Assembly (NCBI GenBank): GCA_963719935.1
Contig: CAVRDY010000016.1
Coordinates: 165,577 to 229,576 of the forward strand
Direction of reading: 5' to 3'
DNA from: an uncultured Actinomycetes bacterium
GTDB taxonomy: Bacteria > Actinomycetota > Acidimicrobiia > Acidimicrobiales > CAVRDY01
DNA: 64,000 nucleotides
Shown: positions 3,189-9,574 of the stretch, piece after piece
Layout: each line of letters opens with the position of its first letter
Position numbering within the stretch: position 1 is the first letter of the stretch
Notes under the pieces: model-generated
What the model saw: only the letters and a program-made list of their open reading frames with translations
Told to the model about the DNA's origin: nothing
The model's database searches: none
Position numbers and translations under genes: made by a program

Positions 3189-3650
3189 ATGACCGATCAC
3201 GCCACCGAGCACATCCGCATCAACGCCCCGGTGTCGCGGTGCTTCGCGGTGCTCACCGACTTCGAGGCCTACCCGGTGTGGGCTGCGGACATCAAGGAGA
3301 CCGAGGTTCACGAACGTGACCCCGAGGGGCGGGGAGTCGAGGTCACCTGGCGGGCCGCAGCCATGGGGCGCAGCACGACGGTGCGCCTGCGCTACGACTA
3401 TGCCGATGCCCCGGCGCTCATGCGCTGGAAGCTCATCGATGGCGATCTGTTGCGCCGCTACGACGGCCACTACCTCCTCGAGCCTGCCCCTGACGATCCC
3501 GGCGCCACCGACCTCGAGTACCAGCTCACGGTCGACCTGGTGGTTCCCCTCCCCGGCTTCGTCAAGAGACGTGCCGAGACCCGGATCATCAAGGCGGCCC
3601 TGCCCGACCTCAAGGCCCACATCGAGGCCGAGCGGTCCCACTCCGACTGA
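3189..3650 (+). CDS. SRPBCC (START/cyclase-dehydrase fold) protein
   Basis: 153-aa ORF. The IRINAPVSRCFAVLTDFEAYPVW pattern is typical of polyketide_cyc2/SRPBCC proteins. TACGCT lies 8 nt upstream of the ATG, suggesting a leaderless start. Confidence 0.8.
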   Translation: MTDHATEHIRINAPVSRCFAVLTDFEAYPVWAADIKETEVHERDPEGRGVEVTWRAAAMGRSTTVRLRYDYADAPALMRWKLIDGDLLRRYDGHYLLEPAPDDPGATDLEYQLTVDLVVPLPGFVKRRAETRIIKAALPDLKAHIEAERSHSD

Positions 3651-3655
3651 CGCCG

Positions 3656-4853
3656 GTGGCCGATCCTGCGGGTCGCGGTTCACGGGTCCTGCTCTTCACC
3701 GGCAAGGGAGGCGTGGGTAAGACCACCGTGGCCGCCGCTACCGCGCTGGCCTGCGCGACCCGGGGCCAACGTACCGTGGTGGTCTCCACCGACCCGGCCC
3801 ATTCCCTGGCCGACGCGCTGGCCGTCCCGGTGGGGGGGGAACCGATCTGGGTGGCCGAGCACCTCTGGGCGGCACAACTCGACGCACGGGCCCGGCTCAC
3901 CTCCCCTGTGGAAGAGCTGCGATCGTGGTTGGGCGAGGTTCTCGCCTGGGCCGGCGTGGATCCCGTGGCCGCCGAGGAGCTCGCCTCCCTTCCCGGCCTG
4001 GACGAACTGGTTGCGCTGACCGACATAGCGGCTCTGGCTGCCGAAGGTCGCTGGGACACCGTGGTGGTGGATTGCGCGCCAACCGCCGACACCCTGCGTC
4101 TCCTGGCACTCCCCGACGTCCTGGCCTGGTGGATGGCACGGGCCTTCCCCCTCGGGCGGCGGATCACCCGATTGCTCGCCCCCGCCCTGCCGCGCCGTGG
4201 CCGGAGTTCCCCTGGCCAGCGAAGCAGCGCTCGGCGCAACCGAACAGCTCTACGCCCGGCTGGGCGAGGTCAAGAGGCTGATGGCCGACCGGCAGGTCAC
4301 CCGCATCCGCCTGGTGGTGACCCCCGAACACATGGTGGTGGCCGAGGCCCGGCGCACCGCCACGGCTCTCGCCCTGTTCGATTACGCCGTGGATGCGGTC
4401 GTGGCCAACCGCATTCTGCCCGAAGAGGTGGTGGATCCCTGGTTCAGCTCCTGGCGGGAGACCCAGACACGTGCCCTCGCCGCCATCGAGGAAGGCTTCT
4501 CGCCGGCACCGGTGCTGCGGGCGGAGCTGGCTCCCGCCGAGGTCGTGGGCATCCCTGCGCTCGAAGCCATGGGCGCATCCCTCTACGGTCGGTCCGATCC
4601 CGCCGAGTCCCGTTGCGAGCGCCAGGCGCTGTCGGTGCGCCGGGTAGAAGGCGGCTACGACCTGGTGTTGGAGATGCCCTTCGTGGCCCCCGGCGACCTC
4701 GATCTGGGTCGTCGCGGTGGTGAGCTGGTGCTGGAGGTGGGGGGGCGCCGCCGCGCCCTGCTGCTGCCCGACAGCCTGGCGCGGCGGTCGGTTTCCGGAG
4801 CGACTCTGCGTGACGGACTCCTGGTCGTCCGCTTCGCCGACCCCCATCGTTGA
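3656..4853 (+). pseudogene. ArsA/Get3-like ATPase with C-terminal HSP20-like domain, broken by one +1 frameshift near 4190
   Basis: The N-terminal part is in the frame of ORF 3656 (deviant Walker A LLFTGKGGVGKTT, then STDPAHSL). The C-terminal part is in the frame of ORF 4197 (RLVVTPEHMVVAEARR..ANRILPEE). Removing one base near 4190 (ctg-c-cgc) joins ..LAPAL to RAVAGVPLASEAAL. Confidence 0.8.
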
Positions 4854-4879
4854 CCCCATCGTTGACCCCATCGTTGACC
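4842..4879. repeat. 12-bp unit ccccatcgttga x 3, each copy containing the in-frame TGA of the ArsA-like gene
   Basis: Copies at 4842-4853, 4854-4865 and 4866-4877, followed by a 2-nt partial copy. Confidence 0.9.
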
Positions 4880-4933
4880 GTCTTGCCAGATCGGGTCGCA
4901 CCCGAGCCGGGATCGGGCCATCATGGAGGGGCT

Positions 4934-5194
4934 GTGCACGAATCCCACACCTCTGAGGCCGCCGAACACCTCCAGGCTGCCGCCCGTTCGATGATCGGTG
5001 CGGCTCGGTCATTCCTGGACGCGCTGGAAGAGCTGGTCGGCGACGCCGACCGCATGTCAGACACCGCTGAGGCCCTGGCCTCGGTGTTGGGGGCCGCCAC
5101 CGGGGCCGCGGGCCCGTCGCAATCGGCCGAGACAGTGGGTCACGCGACGCCAGCTGGTGAACCGGCAACCGTCGAGCGGATTCCGGTCACATGA
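4934..5194 (+). CDS. small helical hypothetical protein
   Basis: The ORF frame is open from 4850 (TTG). GTG 4934 is preceded by GGAGGG. Predicted helical segment AAEHLQAAARSMIGAARSFLDALEELVG. Start uncertain, no family recognised. Confidence 0.35.
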   Translation: MHESHTSEAAEHLQAAARSMIGAARSFLDALEELVGDADRMSDTAEALASVLGAATGAAGPSQSAETVGHATPAGEPATVERIPVT

Positions 5195-5273
5195 GCCGCC
5201 CGACGGCCCTGACCTCGCCAGCGGTCGCGGTTCACGACGACCAAGATGGATCCATCGGCCAGAGGGGGACGAC

Positions 5274-7463
5274 ATGAGGTTGCTCGAGTTGCGCACTGAA
5301 GGGGCCTCCGAGCCGGGGTTGGAGTTCCACCCGAACCTCACCGTGGTGTCGGGGCTGGATGACGAAGCGCGCCAGGCTGTCCGGGCCGCGGTTGCGGCGT
5401 TGCCCGCCGGCGACACACCTGGGCTGGCAGGTCTGGTGGAGGCCCACGGGATCCTGTTCGACCTGACCGTCGACACCTTGGCCGTGCTCGGTCTGGACCA
5501 ACCCCTGGCAGTTGTAGTGGAATCCGCTGACCTCGCCGAGGCCACCTCCGGCCCCAGCCCAGAGGCCACCTCTCCCAGCTCTGCCCGAGCGGTGACAGAC
5601 CCGGTCCCCGACGCGTCAGCGATTGCCGAGCTGGAACGCGTGGAGCTGGCGGTGGCCGACGCCCAAGAGGCCTTCTCGGTGACCGACGAGGCGTTGGAAA
5701 GGGCCCGCATCGAGCGCGCCGCGGCCGTCGAGGCCACCGGGCGGATCCAGGCAGCTCTGGACAAGGCCCGTGTGGCCCGTGACCAGGCCCGGTCTCAGCG
5801 CGACGGCAAGGTGGATACAGCCTTGGCCTCGGGTACCGGTGAAGAGAGGGCACGCCAGCACGTCGACGACCTCTCCCGGACCGTCGCGGATCTGGAGGAG
5901 GCGATCGCCGAACTCGAAGAGCGCGACCCGCGGCCGGTTCAGGTGCTGGTCGATGCCCTGCGCCAGCCCGTGTCCGACCGGTTGGTGCCGTCCCAGGAGG
6001 CCATCGCCGTGGCCGACGAGTTCGCCGAGTTGCAGGTGCAGCTCGACGAGGCCGAACGCCGGCTCCAGGCCGACGGCATGAGCATGGACCAGCTCTCCCA
6101 GCGACTCGAGGACTGCCGCACCGAGTTGCGCCAGGCCGAGAAGGGCGTCAAGAAGCCCGAGCTGACCCCCGAGGACGTCACAGAGCTGGAGGCGGCCCAC
6201 GATGAAGTGCTCGACGCTGAGCGCCGCGCCTCGGGTCGGATGGGGCGCAAGGCCGCCCTGAAGCAACTCGACGAGGCTCGCGAGCTGGAGCAGGCCATCC
6301 TGGACAGGGTCGGCTTCCCGACCTGGACCTCCTACGTCATGGGTTCCTCGTTGCTCAACATCGACCCGATGGCCGAGGTTCGCCTGGAGACGGCTCGCGC
6401 CGAGTTGGCCGAGGCCGAGGCCGCCTGGGCGGATCTGACCGGCCAGCTCGAGGCCGACCCCGACTACAGCGGCCTGCTCGACCGCCTCGAAGCGGTCTTC
6501 CTGGCGGCTTTCGACATCCTCGGTGGTGAGACCGAAGGAGACCTCGAGGGTCTGCTTCGCAGTCACCTGGTTCCCGACGAAGAGGTCTCTCGCGACGACA
6601 TCCTCGAGGCGCTGGCCTACCAGCTGGGTCTGCGAGGTGTCGAGATCGAAGAAGGAGCCGGCGGCGACACCGTCGCAGGTATCGCGGAGGAGTGGCTGGC
6701 CGCCACCGGTGACCACTGGGAGAAGTACCGGGCACTTCAAGAGGAGCACCAGCGGGTGCGTGCCGATCTCGACGCAGCCGAGGCCGAACTGGAGGTGGTT
6801 CTGGGTCAGGCCGAGGCCGACAACCCCGAGGGCCGTCAGGAGGCATACGAGTTGGCCGAGGCCAAGGTGGCCGAGATCCTGGCCGACCTCGAGCAGGCCA
6901 ACGAGATCGTGGCCGACCTGGAGGGCCAGGTAGATGCCCGTGAGCTCATGCTGATGCCGGCGCGCCTGGCTCTGGATGCGGCTGTGGCCGCCCGTGACGC
7001 CGCCCAGGCAGCCCTGGACGCCCCTGGTTCGCCGGTCGGGCAGGAGAGCCCGGGTGCCGGAGCCCACGCTGCGGCGTACGTGCAGCCGTCCTATGACCGC
7101 AAGCCCGAGGTCTACGACGACCTGCCCTATGCCAGCGACGACGACGATGACGACGAAGAGGTGATGCCCGGCGACTGGGGAGGAAGCGACGACATCGAGT
7201 TCTGGTTGCTCTCCCGCATGGCTGCGCTCCGCCATGTCTCCCACGGTGGATCCGTACCTCTGGTGTTGGACGACGCCCTGTGCGGACTCGACGAGGTCGG
7301 CTTGCTGGCGGTGATGGCCAAGCTGGAGCGTATGGCCGAGGCGGTCCAGGTCATCTACCTGAGCGACGACCCCGCGCTGGTGGACTGGGCCGAACGGGCC
7401 GGTCTCCAGCGGGCGGCAGCAGTGTCGTGCTCGGGTGATCTGCGCTCCTCACTGGTCGCCTAA
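5274..7463 (+). CDS. SMC/RecN/ABC-like coiled-coil protein that lacks a Walker A motif but keeps signature-like and Walker B-like motifs
   Basis: ATG 5274 with AGAGGGGGA upstream. The N-terminus MRLLELRTEG..GLEFHPNLTVVSGLDDEARQ resembles an SMC head but has no GxxGxGK[ST]. A coiled-coil-type E/A/R/L-rich region of about 500 aa follows, then an acidic DDDDDDEE tract. C-terminus HVSHGGSVPLVLDDALCGLD. Confidence 0.7.
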   Translation: MRLLELRTEGASEPGLEFHPNLTVVSGLDDEARQAVRAAVAALPAGDTPGLAGLVEAHGILFDLTVDTLAVLGLDQPLAVVVESADLAEATSGPSPEATSPSSARAVTDPVPDASAIAELERVELAVADAQEAFSVTDEALERARIERAAAVEATGRIQAALDKARVARDQARSQRDGKVDTALASGTGEERARQHVDDLSRTVADLEEAIAELEERDPRPVQVLVDALRQPVSDRLVPSQEAIAVADEFAELQVQLDEAERRLQADGMSMDQLSQRLEDCRTELRQAEKGVKKPELTPEDVTELEAAHDEVLDAERRASGRMGRKAALKQLDEARELEQAILDRVGFPTWTSYVMGSSLLNIDPMAEVRLETARAELAEAEAAWADLTGQLEADPDYSGLLDRLEAVFLAAFDILGGETEGDLEGLLRSHLVPDEEVSRDDILEALAYQLGLRGVEIEEGAGGDTVAGIAEEWLAATGDHWEKYRALQEEHQRVRADLDAAEAELEVVLGQAEADNPEGRQEAYELAEAKVAEILADLEQANEIVADLEGQVDARELMLMPARLALDAAVAARDAAQAALDAPGSPVGQESPGAGAHAAAYVQPSYDRKPEVYDDLPYASDDDDDDEEVMPGDWGGSDDIEFWLLSRMAALRHVSHGGSVPLVLDDALCGLDEVGLLAVMAKLERMAEAVQVIYLSDDPALVDWAERAGLQRAAAVSCSGDLRSSLVA

Positions 7464-7472
7464 CCTCACCGG

Positions 7473-8594
7473 ATGGCTGCCCTGCACGAGACCCAGATCC
7501 GCCGCCTGGCAGCCTTCCGCGGGGAGCGATCCCCGGTCACCAGCTGCTACCTCGATGTCGACGGAAAGCACCATCTGCGCCGCCATGATTACCAGGCTGA
7601 GCTGGCCCGCCTCGTCCGGCGGGCCCGTCGCCGGCTCAATGGCGAGCTCACCTCATCGGTCGAGAACGACCTGGATCGCATCACCAGCTACGTGCGCTCC
7701 GGTGTCGACCGCCACCGCGTGCGGGGGCTCGCCCTCTTCGTGTGCAGCGCCCACGACTTCTTCGAGGTGGTCGAGTTGGCAGTCCCCGTCCGCAGCCAAC
7801 TGGTGGTGAACACGGTTCCCGCGGTGCGCCAACTCGAGGAGCTGGTGCAGGGCCACGAGCGCTTCGGTGTCCTCCTGGTCGACCGCCAGCGCACCCGGAT
7901 GCTGGTCTTCGAGCTGGGCGAACTCGTCGACCACAGTTCCGCCGACGAGGAGCTGCCGCGCCACTACGACAGCCGGGGTCACAGCGAGCGGGGTGGCGTC
8001 GACCACCACATCGAGGCGCTGGTGTCCCAGCACGCTCGCCACGCCGCCGATCTGGCGTTCGAGATCTACCAGAAGGTGGGCTTTGCCCACCTCTCCCTCG
8101 GCGGAACTCCCGAGGTGGTGAGCGCAGTGACCGACTCGCTGCACCCCTACCTGTCCGAACGGCTCGCCCCCCACATCTCGGTGGGCGCAGGAGCCTCGAG
8201 CGAAGAGGTGGCGCGGTCCGCGGCCCAGGTCGAGGCCGAGGTGGAACGCGGGCGCGAGCAGCGCCTCGTCGCCGAGGTACGTGAAGGAGTGGGCCGCGGG
8301 CGTGGCGCGGTTGCCGGAGTCGAGGCGGTCATGGGGGTCCTCGCCGAGCGGCGTCTCGAGCACCTGGCGGTCTCGCAGGGCTACTCGGAGCCCGGTTGGC
8401 ACTGCCGTGGGTGCAACCACCTGGCCCTGGTCGGGCGTAGTTGCCCCCGTTGCTCACAAGACATGGATCACGTGGACGACGTCGTCGAAGAAGTGGTTGA
8501 AGAGGCCCTGGAGCAGGGGTGCGCCGTCCGGGTCTGTGTCGAGAACGCGGACCTGGACTGCATCGGCAGCATCGGCGGGCTTCTCCGCTATTGA
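7473..8594 (+). CDS. eRF1/Pelota-like (bacterial baeRF-type) protein with C-terminal Cys4 zinc ribbon
   Basis: N-terminal PVTSCYLDVDG motif. Central RFGVLLVDRQRTRMLVF followed by the loop DSRGHSERGGVDHH at the GGQ-loop position. eRF1 domain-3-like GVEAVMGVLAERRLEHL. CRGC..CPRC ribbon. Confidence 0.7.
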   Translation: MAALHETQIRRLAAFRGERSPVTSCYLDVDGKHHLRRHDYQAELARLVRRARRRLNGELTSSVENDLDRITSYVRSGVDRHRVRGLALFVCSAHDFFEVVELAVPVRSQLVVNTVPAVRQLEELVQGHERFGVLLVDRQRTRMLVFELGELVDHSSADEELPRHYDSRGHSERGGVDHHIEALVSQHARHAADLAFEIYQKVGFAHLSLGGTPEVVSAVTDSLHPYLSERLAPHISVGAGASSEEVARSAAQVEAEVERGREQRLVAEVREGVGRGRGAVAGVEAVMGVLAERRLEHLAVSQGYSEPGWHCRGCNHLALVGRSCPRCSQDMDHVDDVVEEVVEEALEQGCAVRVCVENADLDCIGSIGGLLRY

Positions 8595-9574
8595 ACGAGA
8601 GGGTCTGCGGCCTGGACGTCGGGGGCACCAAGCTCCTGGCCGTCGCCTTCGACCCCGCTGATCCCCTGGGCCCGGGACGATCCGAACGCCGGCTTCCCAC
8701 CCCTGTGGCCGCAGATGAGCTGGTGGCGGCGGCGGTGCAGGCCATCCCGGCACTTCTTGCCGAATCGGGTGGCGAACGCTTGAGGGCGGTGGGTGCGGGG
8801 GTCGCAGGTCTCGTGGACCGGGATGGACGGCTGCGAATGGGCCCCAACCTGCCCGGCATCGTGGACGCGCCCCTGCGGGACCGCCTGGCTTCGGCGCTCG
8901 GGGTGCCGGTCACCGTCGACAACGACGCCACCGCGGCTGCCTGGGGCGAGGTCAAGGTGGGCTCTGCCCGGGACGTCCGGGACGCCGTGGTGGTGACCCT
9001 GGGTACGGGGATCGGGATGGGGCTGGTGTGTGGTGGCCAACTGGTGATCGGGCACCACGGCTACGCCGGCGAGGCAGGTCACATGGTCGTCGACCCCGAT
9101 GGCCCACCCTGCCCTTGCGGCCGGCGGGGGTGTTGGGAGCGCTATGCGTCCGGCAGCGGCCTGGGGCGGCTGGGTCGGGACGCGGCCGAGGCCGGGCGCC
9201 TGGGCAGGGTGGTGGCATCCCTGGGTGGTGATCCCGACGCAGTTCGGGGTGAGCACGTCACGGCGGCGGCCATCGACGGGGATCCCGAAGCCCTGGCGGT
9301 GGTGGATGCCTTCGCCTGGTGGGTGGCCCTGGGTCTGGCCAATCTCACCAACGTCGTGGATCCCGAACTGTTCGTGATCGCCGGTGGCCTGGTGACCACC
9401 GGTGAGGTGTTGCTGCAGCCGGTTCGCCGGGCCTACGGCGAACTCCTCTACGGGACGGGCCACCGGCCGCCGGCCCGGGTGGTGATGGCCTCGCTGGGCG
9501 AGGCTGCCGGCGCCATCGGTGCCGGACTGCGGGCAGCGGACGCGAGTGCCTTCGGGGCGAGCCCCGAGGGCTAG
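8591..9574 (+). CDS. ROK-family sugar kinase (glucokinase-like)
   Basis: TTG 8591 overlaps the upstream stop (TTGA). N-terminus CGLDVGGTKL. ROK zinc motif GHHGYAGEAGH..CPCGRRGCWE. No N-terminal HTH. Confidence 0.8.
   Translation: MNERVCGLDVGGTKLLAVAFDPADPLGPGRSERRLPTPVAADELVAAAVQAIPALLAESGGERLRAVGAGVAGLVDRDGRLRMGPNLPGIVDAPLRDRLASALGVPVTVDNDATAAAWGEVKVGSARDVRDAVVVTLGTGIGMGLVCGGQLVIGHHGYAGEAGHMVVDPDGPPCPCGRRGCWERYASGSGLGRLGRDAAEAGRLGRVVASLGGDPDAVRGEHVTAAAIDGDPEALAVVDAFAWWVALGLANLTNVVDPELFVIAGGLVTTGEVLLQPVRRAYGELLYGTGHRPPARVVMASLGEAAGAIGAGLRAADASAFGASPEG

Follow-up and report, generated by a model that had tools for sequence, protein, structure and literature searches.

The 64,000-nucleotide stretch of DNA analysed here (hereafter the window), from an uncultured bacterium of the Acidimicrobiales with a G+C content of about 70% in this region, harbours at positions 5274 to 7463 of its forward strand a gene coding for an SMC/RecN/Rad50-like coiled-coil protein, whose predicted ABC-type head has lost its ATP motifs. 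The open reading frame (ORF) is free of stops, and its 729-residue translation is identical to that quoted in a first-pass annotation of this DNA, a model's reading of the letters; it is a genuine gene. The longest possible ORF starts further upstream, at a GTG in position 4998, but the ATG at 5274 is to be preferred, because a Shine-Dalgarno-like element lies just before it and all the aligned orthologues begin with M-R-L-L. The parts of the gene are given below with the residue numbers of the protein; motif counts come from a column census of 107 aligned family sequences, model confidence from AlphaFold2 (AF2) as the predicted local distance difference test (pLDDT), and conservation is expressed as the mean top-residue frequency.

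5261..5269, + strand: Shine-Dalgarno-like AGAGGGGGA, 5 nucleotides (nt) upstream of the ATG, read from the sequence
5274..7463, + strand: whole gene, 729 residues plus stop; SMC/RecN/Rad50-like coiled-coil protein with a putative degenerate ABC-type head; conserved at full length in 107 aligned relatives
5274..5549, + strand: N-terminal head lobe (N-lobe), residues 1-92; pLDDT 90-97, aligned by hhalign to the RecN N-terminus and RecF; conservation 0.62, with 19 of 92 columns conserved at 90% or more
5352..5375, + strand: P-loop-equivalent loop G27-L-D-D-E-A-R33-Q34; from the census, aligned with RecN, RecF, SbcC and MukB
5550..5612, + strand: variable low-confidence linker, residues 93-113; pLDDT below 50 for residues 95-110, conservation 0.27
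5613..5963, + strand: outgoing coiled-coil arm, residues 114-230; AF2 helices 114-177, 186-216 and 220-230; conservation 0.49, 3 of 117 columns at 90% or more
5964..6713, + strand: conserved helical middle or apex region, residues 231-480; no SMC hinge fold, no CxxC hook; conservation 0.65, 46 of 250 columns at 90% or more
6297..6368, + strand: apex motif I342-L-D-R-V-G-F-P-T-W-T-S-Y-V-M-G-S-S-L-L-N-I-D-P365, at the turn between outgoing and returning helices
6714..7028, + strand: returning coiled-coil arm, residues 481-585; AF2 helices 481-514 and 518-582; conservation 0.47, 1 of 105 columns at 90% or more
7029..7178, + strand: disordered acidic linker with DDDDDDEE, residues 586-635; pLDDT 37-45, conservation 0.20, net charge -12
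7179..7460, + strand: C-terminal head lobe (C-lobe), residues 636-729; pLDDT 93-98, supported by a profile against the PDB and by hhalign to RecN and SbcC; conservation over residues 636-722 of 0.66, 18 of 87 columns at 90% or more
7257..7292, + strand: Walker B-equivalent P662-L-V-L-D666-D667 followed by a weak D-loop, A-L-C-G-L-D673; from the census and the alignment register
7347..7370, + strand: H-loop-equivalent Q692-V-I-Y-L-S-D698-D699, aligned to QVILVSHD of Rad50 and QVMCVTHLP of RecN

A Walker A motif, [AG]xxxxGK[STQ], is found in 0 of 259 family proteins, anywhere in the sequence, and is also absent from the most divergent loci (L048, L050 and L052). Its absence at the expected site, where the protein of the window reads GLDDEARQ, was already pointed out in the first-pass annotation, and proves to be a family-wide feature rather than a local sequence problem, as no orthologue, either among the 259 relatives or on the divergent branch, has an intact motif. 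The equivalent loop has the same length as GxxxxGK[ST] and follows the family consensus G-L-x-x-x-[G/A]32-R33-[E/A/D/Q]34. In all four N-lobe alignments, the first Gly of Walker A is matched by G27, the Lys by R33 and the Ser/Thr by Q34. Gly27 is retained in 98 of the 107 sequences and Arg33 in 101, a Lys at position 33 occurs only once, and position 34 is mostly Glu (42), Ala (27) or Asp (22).

With regard to the C-lobe, the LVLDDAL stretch proposed as a Walker B is indeed in register with the Walker B of Rad50, MacB, UvrA, SbcC, RecN, RecF and MukB. The hhhhD part of hhhhDE is kept, but the catalytic Glu is replaced by Asp, giving hhhhDD (D666 in 104/107 and D667 in 95/107, with Glu at the latter position in 6/107). 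The H-loop His is likewise replaced by Asp (D698, 94/107), while the preceding Gln692 is invariant (107/107). Two further motifs thought to be retained do not hold up. The D-loop-like GLD has its Asp673 in just 37 of the 107 sequences, and the SHGG at residues 656-659, taken for a signature, sits three residues ahead of the Walker B strand, which is not where a signature belongs. This SHGG belongs to a strongly conserved S656-x-x-G659-S660-V-P662 segment, which aligns with the pre-Walker-B loop of MacB ('..NGGQV', 'MNGGQV') and of Rad50 ('YLAGEIS'). A true signature, LSGGx, would be expected about 20-29 residues before Walker B and maps, depending on the template, to columns 634-645, where no conserved S-G-G is present and only E642 and [FW]643-[YF]644-L645 are conserved. 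The W-G-G-S of the protein itself (635-638) lies in ungapped register with LSGGE of SbcC; Gly is found at those columns in 12/107 and 41/107 sequences, and this segment represents at most a vestige of the signature. Across the family, then, the Walker A Lys is exchanged for Arg33, the Ser/Thr for Glu, Ala, Asp or Gln, the Walker B Glu for Asp667 and the H-loop His for Asp698, and the SGG of the signature is gone. Since the replacement residues are themselves conserved, this pattern points to a head kept by selection for a different, non-catalytic job, rather than to a decaying gene.

The head pattern of SMC, RecN and RecF combined with a coiled coil, as suggested in the first-pass annotation, is supported by structure prediction and by profile alignments of both lobes. 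The AF2 model of the full protein, based on the 107-sequence alignment, has a mean pLDDT of 88, and its two terminal domains reach 92-98. In this model, the N-lobe consists of strands 2-7, 15-17 and 22-26, the loop, helix 30-42, and strands 52-57 and 60-63, and the C-lobe of helix 636-652, strand 663-666, helix 674-687, strand 693-696, helix 700-709 and strand 714-718. Between the two lobes runs a long antiparallel coiled coil, with about 95 residues in each strand, which joins residues 1-92 to residues 636-729 and gives the bipartite head characteristic of the superfamily. In a Foldseek search of the PDB with the full-length model, the best match is Rad50 (7zr1, E=1.7e-7), and MukB, Smc5/6 and JetC come next. 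Dynein stalks, chemoreceptors and similar generic coiled coils appear at E values of about 1e-3 to 1e-2, and LmuB only weakly, at rank 45 (E=0.055).

At the sequence level, a profile built from the C-terminal 87 residues and compared with all PDB sequences retrieves mostly ABC-type ATPases among its top 15 matches, including Rad50, UvrA, MacB, and amino-acid and lantibiotic ABC transporters, with Smc lower. Individually these matches are weak (E 0.07-0.5), but they share one register, which places PLVIDDAL on hhhhDEPT (Walker B) and QVIYLSDD on QVILVSHD (Q...H-loop). SMC_N is the second most frequent weak Pfam match of the C-lobes (4 of 29, best E 0.027). The N-lobe profile finds nothing SMC-like in the PDB or Pfam, only spurious designed armadillo repeats, and its similarity is seen solely by hhalign against RecN and RecF. 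In these comparisons, lobe profiles from 213 and 231 family members were aligned with E. coli SbcC, RecN, RecF and MukB as single-sequence templates, chosen because the window codes for no ABC ATPase and the related loci for too few, with 120 shuffles per test and eight unrelated proteins as controls. The N-lobe scored 28.3 against RecN (best of 120 shuffles 21.2) and 18.0 against RecF (15.7), and the C-lobe 24.0 against RecN (16.6) and 21.1 against SbcC (18.8). The unrelated proteins did not exceed 15.5, and in each of these four tests the observed score was reached by 0 of 120 shuffles. The alignments of the two lobes with RecN, RecF, SbcC and MukB keep the Walker A and Walker B positions in register. 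Three independent lines, namely, structure prediction, the C-lobe profile and the hhalign comparisons of the lobes, thus place the protein with high confidence in the SMC/Rad50/RecN branch of ABC ATPases, and its head is predicted to derive from an ATPase of this type.

Between the lobes, the first-pass annotation described about 500 residues of heptad-like sequence. The stretch is not made of plain heptads throughout: about 220 residues form two long helix pairs (114-230 and 481-585), and another 250 (231-480) a highly conserved helical region. The helix lengths of the returning arm mirror those of the outgoing one. The arms are less conserved than the two head lobes and residues 231-480, where conservation peaks, and the middle region alone holds 46 of the protein's 87 columns conserved at 90% or more. 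When modelled separately by AF2, it is all-helical (pLDDT 86.5), and a Foldseek search with this model gives no significant match, only antiparallel coiled-coil segments, the best being an SMC arm (5xg2, E=0.076); other weak matches are to colicins, chemoreceptors and the Rad50 hook region. An SMC hinge domain was considered for this region and rejected, as the model matches coiled-coil segments only, and so was a zinc hook, the Cys of the protein being at positions 281, 670 and 719, with no CxxC. The turn itself is made by a loop between helices 325-346 and 365-394 of the AF2 model, with the family motif I342-L-D-R-V-G-F-P-T-W-x-x-Y-V-M-G-x-x-L-L-x-I-D-P365, in which L343, G347 and M356 are invariant, and D344, R345, T350, W351, Y354, G357, D364 and P365 are at least 90% conserved. 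This motif is a putative dimerisation or partner-binding site.

The acidic DDDDDDEE tract noticed earlier is present and lies within the variable low-confidence linker of residues 586-635 (pLDDT below 50). In the same linker, at residues 606-625 (nt about 7089-7148), the closest subclade shares the short linear motif PSYDRKPE[VI]YDDLPYA, in place of which other subclades have RPASDPAF[DE]V; both may be partner-docking peptides. The protein as a whole has an isoelectric point (pI) of 4.21 and a net charge of -92, with 11 Lys in 729 residues. Each of its regions, including both head lobes, is acidic (pI about 4.05-4.7), and the family median is 4.44, compared with 5.2-5.5 for E. coli RecN, SbcC and MukB. 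This extreme acidity disfavours direct DNA binding. Membrane anchoring was also considered and rejected, since the most hydrophobic 19-residue segment averages 1.56 on the Kyte-Doolittle scale and is located in the N-lobe strands.

The family to which the protein belongs is widespread in its order. A first search of 5.8 billion proteins returned 124 homologues with 29-63% identity, mostly full length, none with a Pfam domain, and called 'hypothetical protein' wherever they are named. A profile search of 1.84 billion cluster representatives (50% identity) gave 488 clusters at E<1e-30. Neither Pfam nor NCBIfam has a model of the family; the full-length protein retrieves only coiled-coil noise from Pfam, NCBIfam, PADLOC and the PDB sequences, and nothing above noise from the curated RecN and SMC models (NCBIfam, Pfam SMC_N). 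The literature searched holds no account of a Walker-A-less SMC-like family or of this gene neighbourhood. A scan of one genome per GTDB species located the gene at 75 loci with conserved synteny, with titles naming Microthrixaceae, Iamiaceae, Rhabdothermincola, Aquihabitans, Acidimicrobiaceae, or unclassified Acidimicrobiales or Actinomycetes. Two of the 75 are labelled Acidobacteriota, yet show the same synteny as the rest. It is therefore well supported that we are dealing with an unannotated family specific to the Acidimicrobiales lineage, and the Acidobacteriota-labelled members reflect either mis-binning or rare transfer.

These two loci, L048 (5335-7338) and L050, stem from metagenome-assembled genomes and form a divergent branch, with about 36% identity to the family over the middle region only. 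Their heads read ...VTLIAGLGPVGIDEL... and ...QPVVITVDDGDVHG...VTQVLVLSDTSE, and both have the SRPBCC-target order of the Acidimicrobiia type, L050 additionally with QueG and GT4. The collection of 5.8 billion proteins contains only two proteins of this kind. A search outward from L048, the most divergent member, gave six matches, which all belong to the family and all lack a Walker A.

Among known proteins, RecN would be the nearest relative by profile score, a ranking based on single-sequence templates. It gives the best scores for both lobes (28.3 and 24.0, above all shuffles and controls), the order of elements is the same (three beta strands, P-loop position, helix, coiled coil, Walker B, Q..H-loop), and the size class is similar (553 residues for RecN compared with 729), with a relatively short arm. 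However, RecN has GETGAGKS, LSGGE, DE and His, none of which is found in the present family, its pI is 5.4 as against 4.2, and the conserved apex region of 250 residues matches no solved structure significantly in sequence or fold. RecN, moreover, binds DNA and is SOS-induced. Rad50/SbcC provides the top structural match (7zr1, E=1.7e-7) and the top PDB sequence matches of the C-lobe, and its coiled coil, too, is long and antiparallel and turns at an apex, not at a globular SMC hinge. The differences are the missing CxxC zinc hook, in place of which the apex carries GFPTW..YVMG..IDP, the missing ATP motifs and a much shorter arm; in addition, no Mre11/SbcD gene lies beside the gene in the window or at the related loci, where the neighbours are ArsA-HSP20, a small ORF, baeRF and ROK genes.

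SMC, MukB, JetC (MksB) and LmuB of Lamassu resemble the protein in their head, coiled coil, head architecture and in the Foldseek matches, but the hinge domain and the ATP motifs are lacking here. The LmuB match in PADLOC is weak and confined to the coiled-coil region (E 1.9e-4, 17.8 bits). No kleisin, KITE or effector genes were found nearby, and the surroundings are a conserved housekeeping neighbourhood rather than a defence island, unlike what is expected of an anti-phage SMC-like system such as Lamassu or Wadjet. The degenerate sites of heterodimeric ABC exporters and of CFTR NBD1 offer another parallel, in that the ABC fold is kept while the Walker B Glu, the H-loop His and the signature are substituted. 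Such consensus-deviant sites, however, keep their Walker A, bind ATP tightly and are paired with a competent site, whereas the present protein, which is expected to be a homodimer, has lost Walker A, signature, catalytic base and His together. We class it as a degenerate variant derived from the SMC/RecN/Rad50 kind and standing outside any named family.

The gene is embedded in the following order in the window, which is kept in distant relatives and across the 75 genome loci:

9-1475: QueG-like gene
1442-2599: GT4 glycosyltransferase
3189-3650: SRPBCC protein
3656..4853, + strand: Get3/ArsA-family ATPase with a C-terminal HSP20-like domain (Pfam ArsA_ATPase 1.8e-46 and 9.7e-25, ArsA_HSP20 9.1e-19)
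4850..5194, + strand: small helical ORF of 114 residues between the ArsA gene and the gene under study, from an alignment of four orthologues
7473..8594, + strand: baeRF family 10 gene (aeRF1-like, Balon-related; Pfam PF18854, 3.6e-21), 9 nt after the stop of the gene under study
about 8600-9574: ROK kinase

The gaps flanking the gene are 79 nt upstream and 9 nt downstream, and no terminator-like site is present on the + strand between 3000 and 9800. The gene is thus probably co-transcribed with those for ArsA-HSP20 and the Balon-like aeRF1 homologue. Among the loci that could be evaluated, ArsA is upstream and co-oriented in 51 of 63 (81%); in the other 12, the gene directly follows SRPBCC or other genes, and both ArsA and the small ORF are missing there. 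Of 68 loci, 55 have a baeRF gene downstream, and 13 keep the gene under study without it. Neither neighbour is obligatory. The small ORF has no match in any of the 12 ArsA-less loci, and therefore goes with ArsA and not with the gene under study.

ArsA-type proteins with an alpha-crystallin domain constitute a bacterial Get3 group of unknown function (PMC6593721), and Balon-family genes have been reported in stress-response operons, often together with Hsp20 (PMC10901736). The baeRF neighbour has a zinc-ribbon-like CxxC...CxxC ending at its C-terminus. It scores 60 bits against the NCBIfam model of the MSMEG_1130 (Balon-type) ribosome hibernation factor, compared with a cut-off of 480, and may represent a distinct subfamily. 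The product of the small ORF has a conserved helix (HLQAAARxxIxAxRSFLDALEELV) and terminates at its C-terminus in V-E-x-I-x-V-T, reminiscent of the IxI/V motif in the tails of small heat-shock proteins; it may dock on the HSP20-like domain of ArsA. In the window, this ORF overlaps the ArsA stop by 4 nt. The ArsA-HSP20 gene of the window is split by a +1 frameshift near 4193-4199, its first frame corresponding to orthologue residues 10-179 and its second to 180-397, while the orthologues are intact (393-401 residues). This could be a sequencing error or a fresh pseudogene; programmed frameshifting is less likely.

Considering these features, we favour, with a probability of about 0.6, the interpretation that the protein is an SMC/RecN/Rad50-derived pseudo-ATPase acting as an ATP-independent scaffold. 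The first-pass annotation had offered a pseudo-ATPase scaffold as one of two alternatives, and of these it is the one supported here. Having no P-loop Lys, no Mg-binding hydroxyl, no catalytic base and no signature, the head should be unable to run the ATP-sandwich engagement cycle, and the protein would function as an elongated ATP-independent rod, scaffold or adaptor. Dimerisation would probably occur through the hydrophobic-aromatic apex (ILDRVGFPTWxxYVMG..IDP), with the apex standing in for a hinge or zinc hook. Both the acidic disordered linker and the fossil head, which a pairing of R33 with the acidic cluster D666/D667/D698 might stabilise, could serve as docking surfaces for protein partners, and the extreme negative charge favours basic proteins over DNA as such partners. 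A role in stress or proteostasis is plausible from the likely co-transcription with Get3/ArsA-HSP20 and the Balon-like aeRF1 homologue. Several points weigh against this interpretation. The sequence matches are individually weak (E of at least 0.07 in the PDB, hhalign probability of at most 46%), and the union of the N- and C-lobes in one ABC-like domain rests on the full-length Foldseek alignment and the sequence registers. The loss of ATP binding is deduced from the sequence; the loop is still as long as a Walker A, retains Gly27, in many cases Gly32, and a basic residue, and some binding of a nucleotide or phosphate ligand may persist. Furthermore, the synteny extends to many housekeeping genes (QueG, GT4, ROK, aminotransferase) and may express vertical inheritance or slow genome rearrangement rather than shared function. 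Apex dimerisation and the scaffold role are, for their part, putative, and our confidence in any specific partner is lower than in the interpretation as a whole.

Other explanations assign the protein to one of its neighbours. It might serve the neighbouring Get3/ArsA-HSP20 ATPase as an obligate partner or regulator, docking on ArsA by its head or rod and depending on the ATP cycle of ArsA. The upstream, co-oriented position of ArsA in 51 of 63 loci agrees with such a function, as do the overlap between the ArsA gene and the small ORF, seen in the window and in L004, the gap of only 4 nt that separates small ORF and target in L004, and the absence of a terminator-like site between ArsA-HSP20 and the gene. 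However, 12 of the 63 loci hold the gene without an adjoining ArsA or small ORF, it is the small ORF and not the target that tracks ArsA, and in the window the ArsA gene is frameshifted while its supposed partner is intact. ArsA/Get3 is a SIMIBI-class ATPase, whose own dimer closes over the nucleotide, with no ABC signature acting in trans. The more precise proposal of the first-pass annotation, a head presenting its signature to the upstream ArsA-like ATPase as an obligate partner, is not supported, given that the signature itself has gone, that a SIMIBI ATPase makes no use of one and that the ArsA-less loci exist. Obligate partnership in general appears unlikely, although the ArsA-HSP20 gene, co-oriented and found at 81% of loci, may be linked to the gene under study in a looser, facultative way. 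Equally, the acidic rod could work with the Balon-like aeRF1 homologue by tethering or organising hibernating ribosomes or basic ribosomal proteins, for which the net charge of -92 would be suitable; the baeRF family 10 gene begins 9 nt past the stop and is found downstream in 55 of 68 loci, and Balon-family genes are reported from stress-response operons, often with Hsp20 (PMC10901736). Intergenic gaps of 78-139 nt in other genomes nevertheless speak against tight coupling, 13 of 68 loci have the gene but no baeRF, and the neighbour falls far under the curated Balon-like cut-off (60 versus 480 bits), so that we regard this function as improbable.

The remaining explanations concern the head and the gene itself. 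The GLxxxGR loop, together with the acidic Walker B/H-loop cluster, might form a non-canonical sensor, in which the binding of a ligand, be it a nucleotide, a phosphate-containing alarmone or a metal, gates head engagement. Conservation of the loop length, of Gly27, of Gly/Ala32 and of a basic residue at the Lys position is in line with this, and so are the strong constraint on the substitutes R33, D667, D698 and E642 and the very high confidence at which the head is modelled. On the other hand, E, A, D or Q stands where the Mg-binding Ser/Thr should be, acidic residues are frequent in the loop (D29 in 38/107, and DDE in the protein of the window), no signature motif is available to close the sandwich, and an exchange of the Walker A Lys for Arg normally abolishes the activity of ABC ATPases; a sensor of this kind seems a poor prospect. 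An ATP-free analogue of SMC, RecN or Rad50 acting on DNA, in chromosome organisation or double-strand-break repair, would fit the nearest relatives in sequence and fold (RecN, Rad50/SbcC, MukB and Smc5/6), but is very improbable for a protein that is strongly acidic in every region, head lobes included, has 11 Lys in 729 residues, has no Mre11/SbcD nuclease or kleisin gene nearby, and is devoid of hinge, zinc hook and ATP motifs. Finally, the signs of sequence or assembly trouble in the vicinity, namely, the ArsA frameshift and a perfect repeat of 11.6 copies of 27 bp in QueG, might suggest that the ORF is spurious, that the gene is a pseudogene in decay, or that a local sequencing error hides the Walker A of a canonical SMC-like gene. 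The family alignment refutes such an artefact, as the same substitutions and full-length conservation recur across hundreds of diverged genomes, and the good ribosome-binding site and confident predicted fold speak against it as well; its probability is negligible.

To return to the SMC/RecN-derived rod that we favour, a more far-reaching version can be put forward, albeit as a quite unlikely one. The rod would be the product of a core-like, vertically inherited gene of the whole order, with its head as a nucleotide-free interaction module, and would act as an acidic organiser linking the Get3-type ATPase with the Balon-like factor. If true, this would make it a scaffold of a new kind, serving dormancy or proteostasis, and the first protein of the SMC family that naturally works without ATP. 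SMC, Rad50 and RecN are defined by an ATP-gated head cycle, and the present family tests which parts of their architecture can serve without the motor; it may show a route from an ABC head to a pure interaction domain. Acidimicrobiales are abundant in soil, activated sludge (Microthrix) and marine sediments, and a family definition would improve the annotation of hundreds of genomes across the order, in which these proteins now figure as 'hypothetical protein'.

Two repeats were noticed upstream of the gene. At 4842-4879, a perfect tandem repeat of 12 bp in 3.2 copies (CCCCATCGTTGA) extends across the ArsA stop and the start of the small ORF, where it encodes PSLTPSLT at the N-terminus of the small protein. 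Within the ORF at 9-1475, positions 522-833 consist of the perfect 27-bp tandem repeat (11.6 copies, 100% identity), which is in frame and adds GAVLTDAPL about 11 times to the QueG-like protein (epoxyqueuosine reductase-type, Fer4_16/HEAT_2). The QueG-like orthologues of loci L001, L003 and L004 have 373-431 residues compared with 488 in the window, and the repeat is either a very recent expansion of a variable-number tandem repeat or an assembly artefact.

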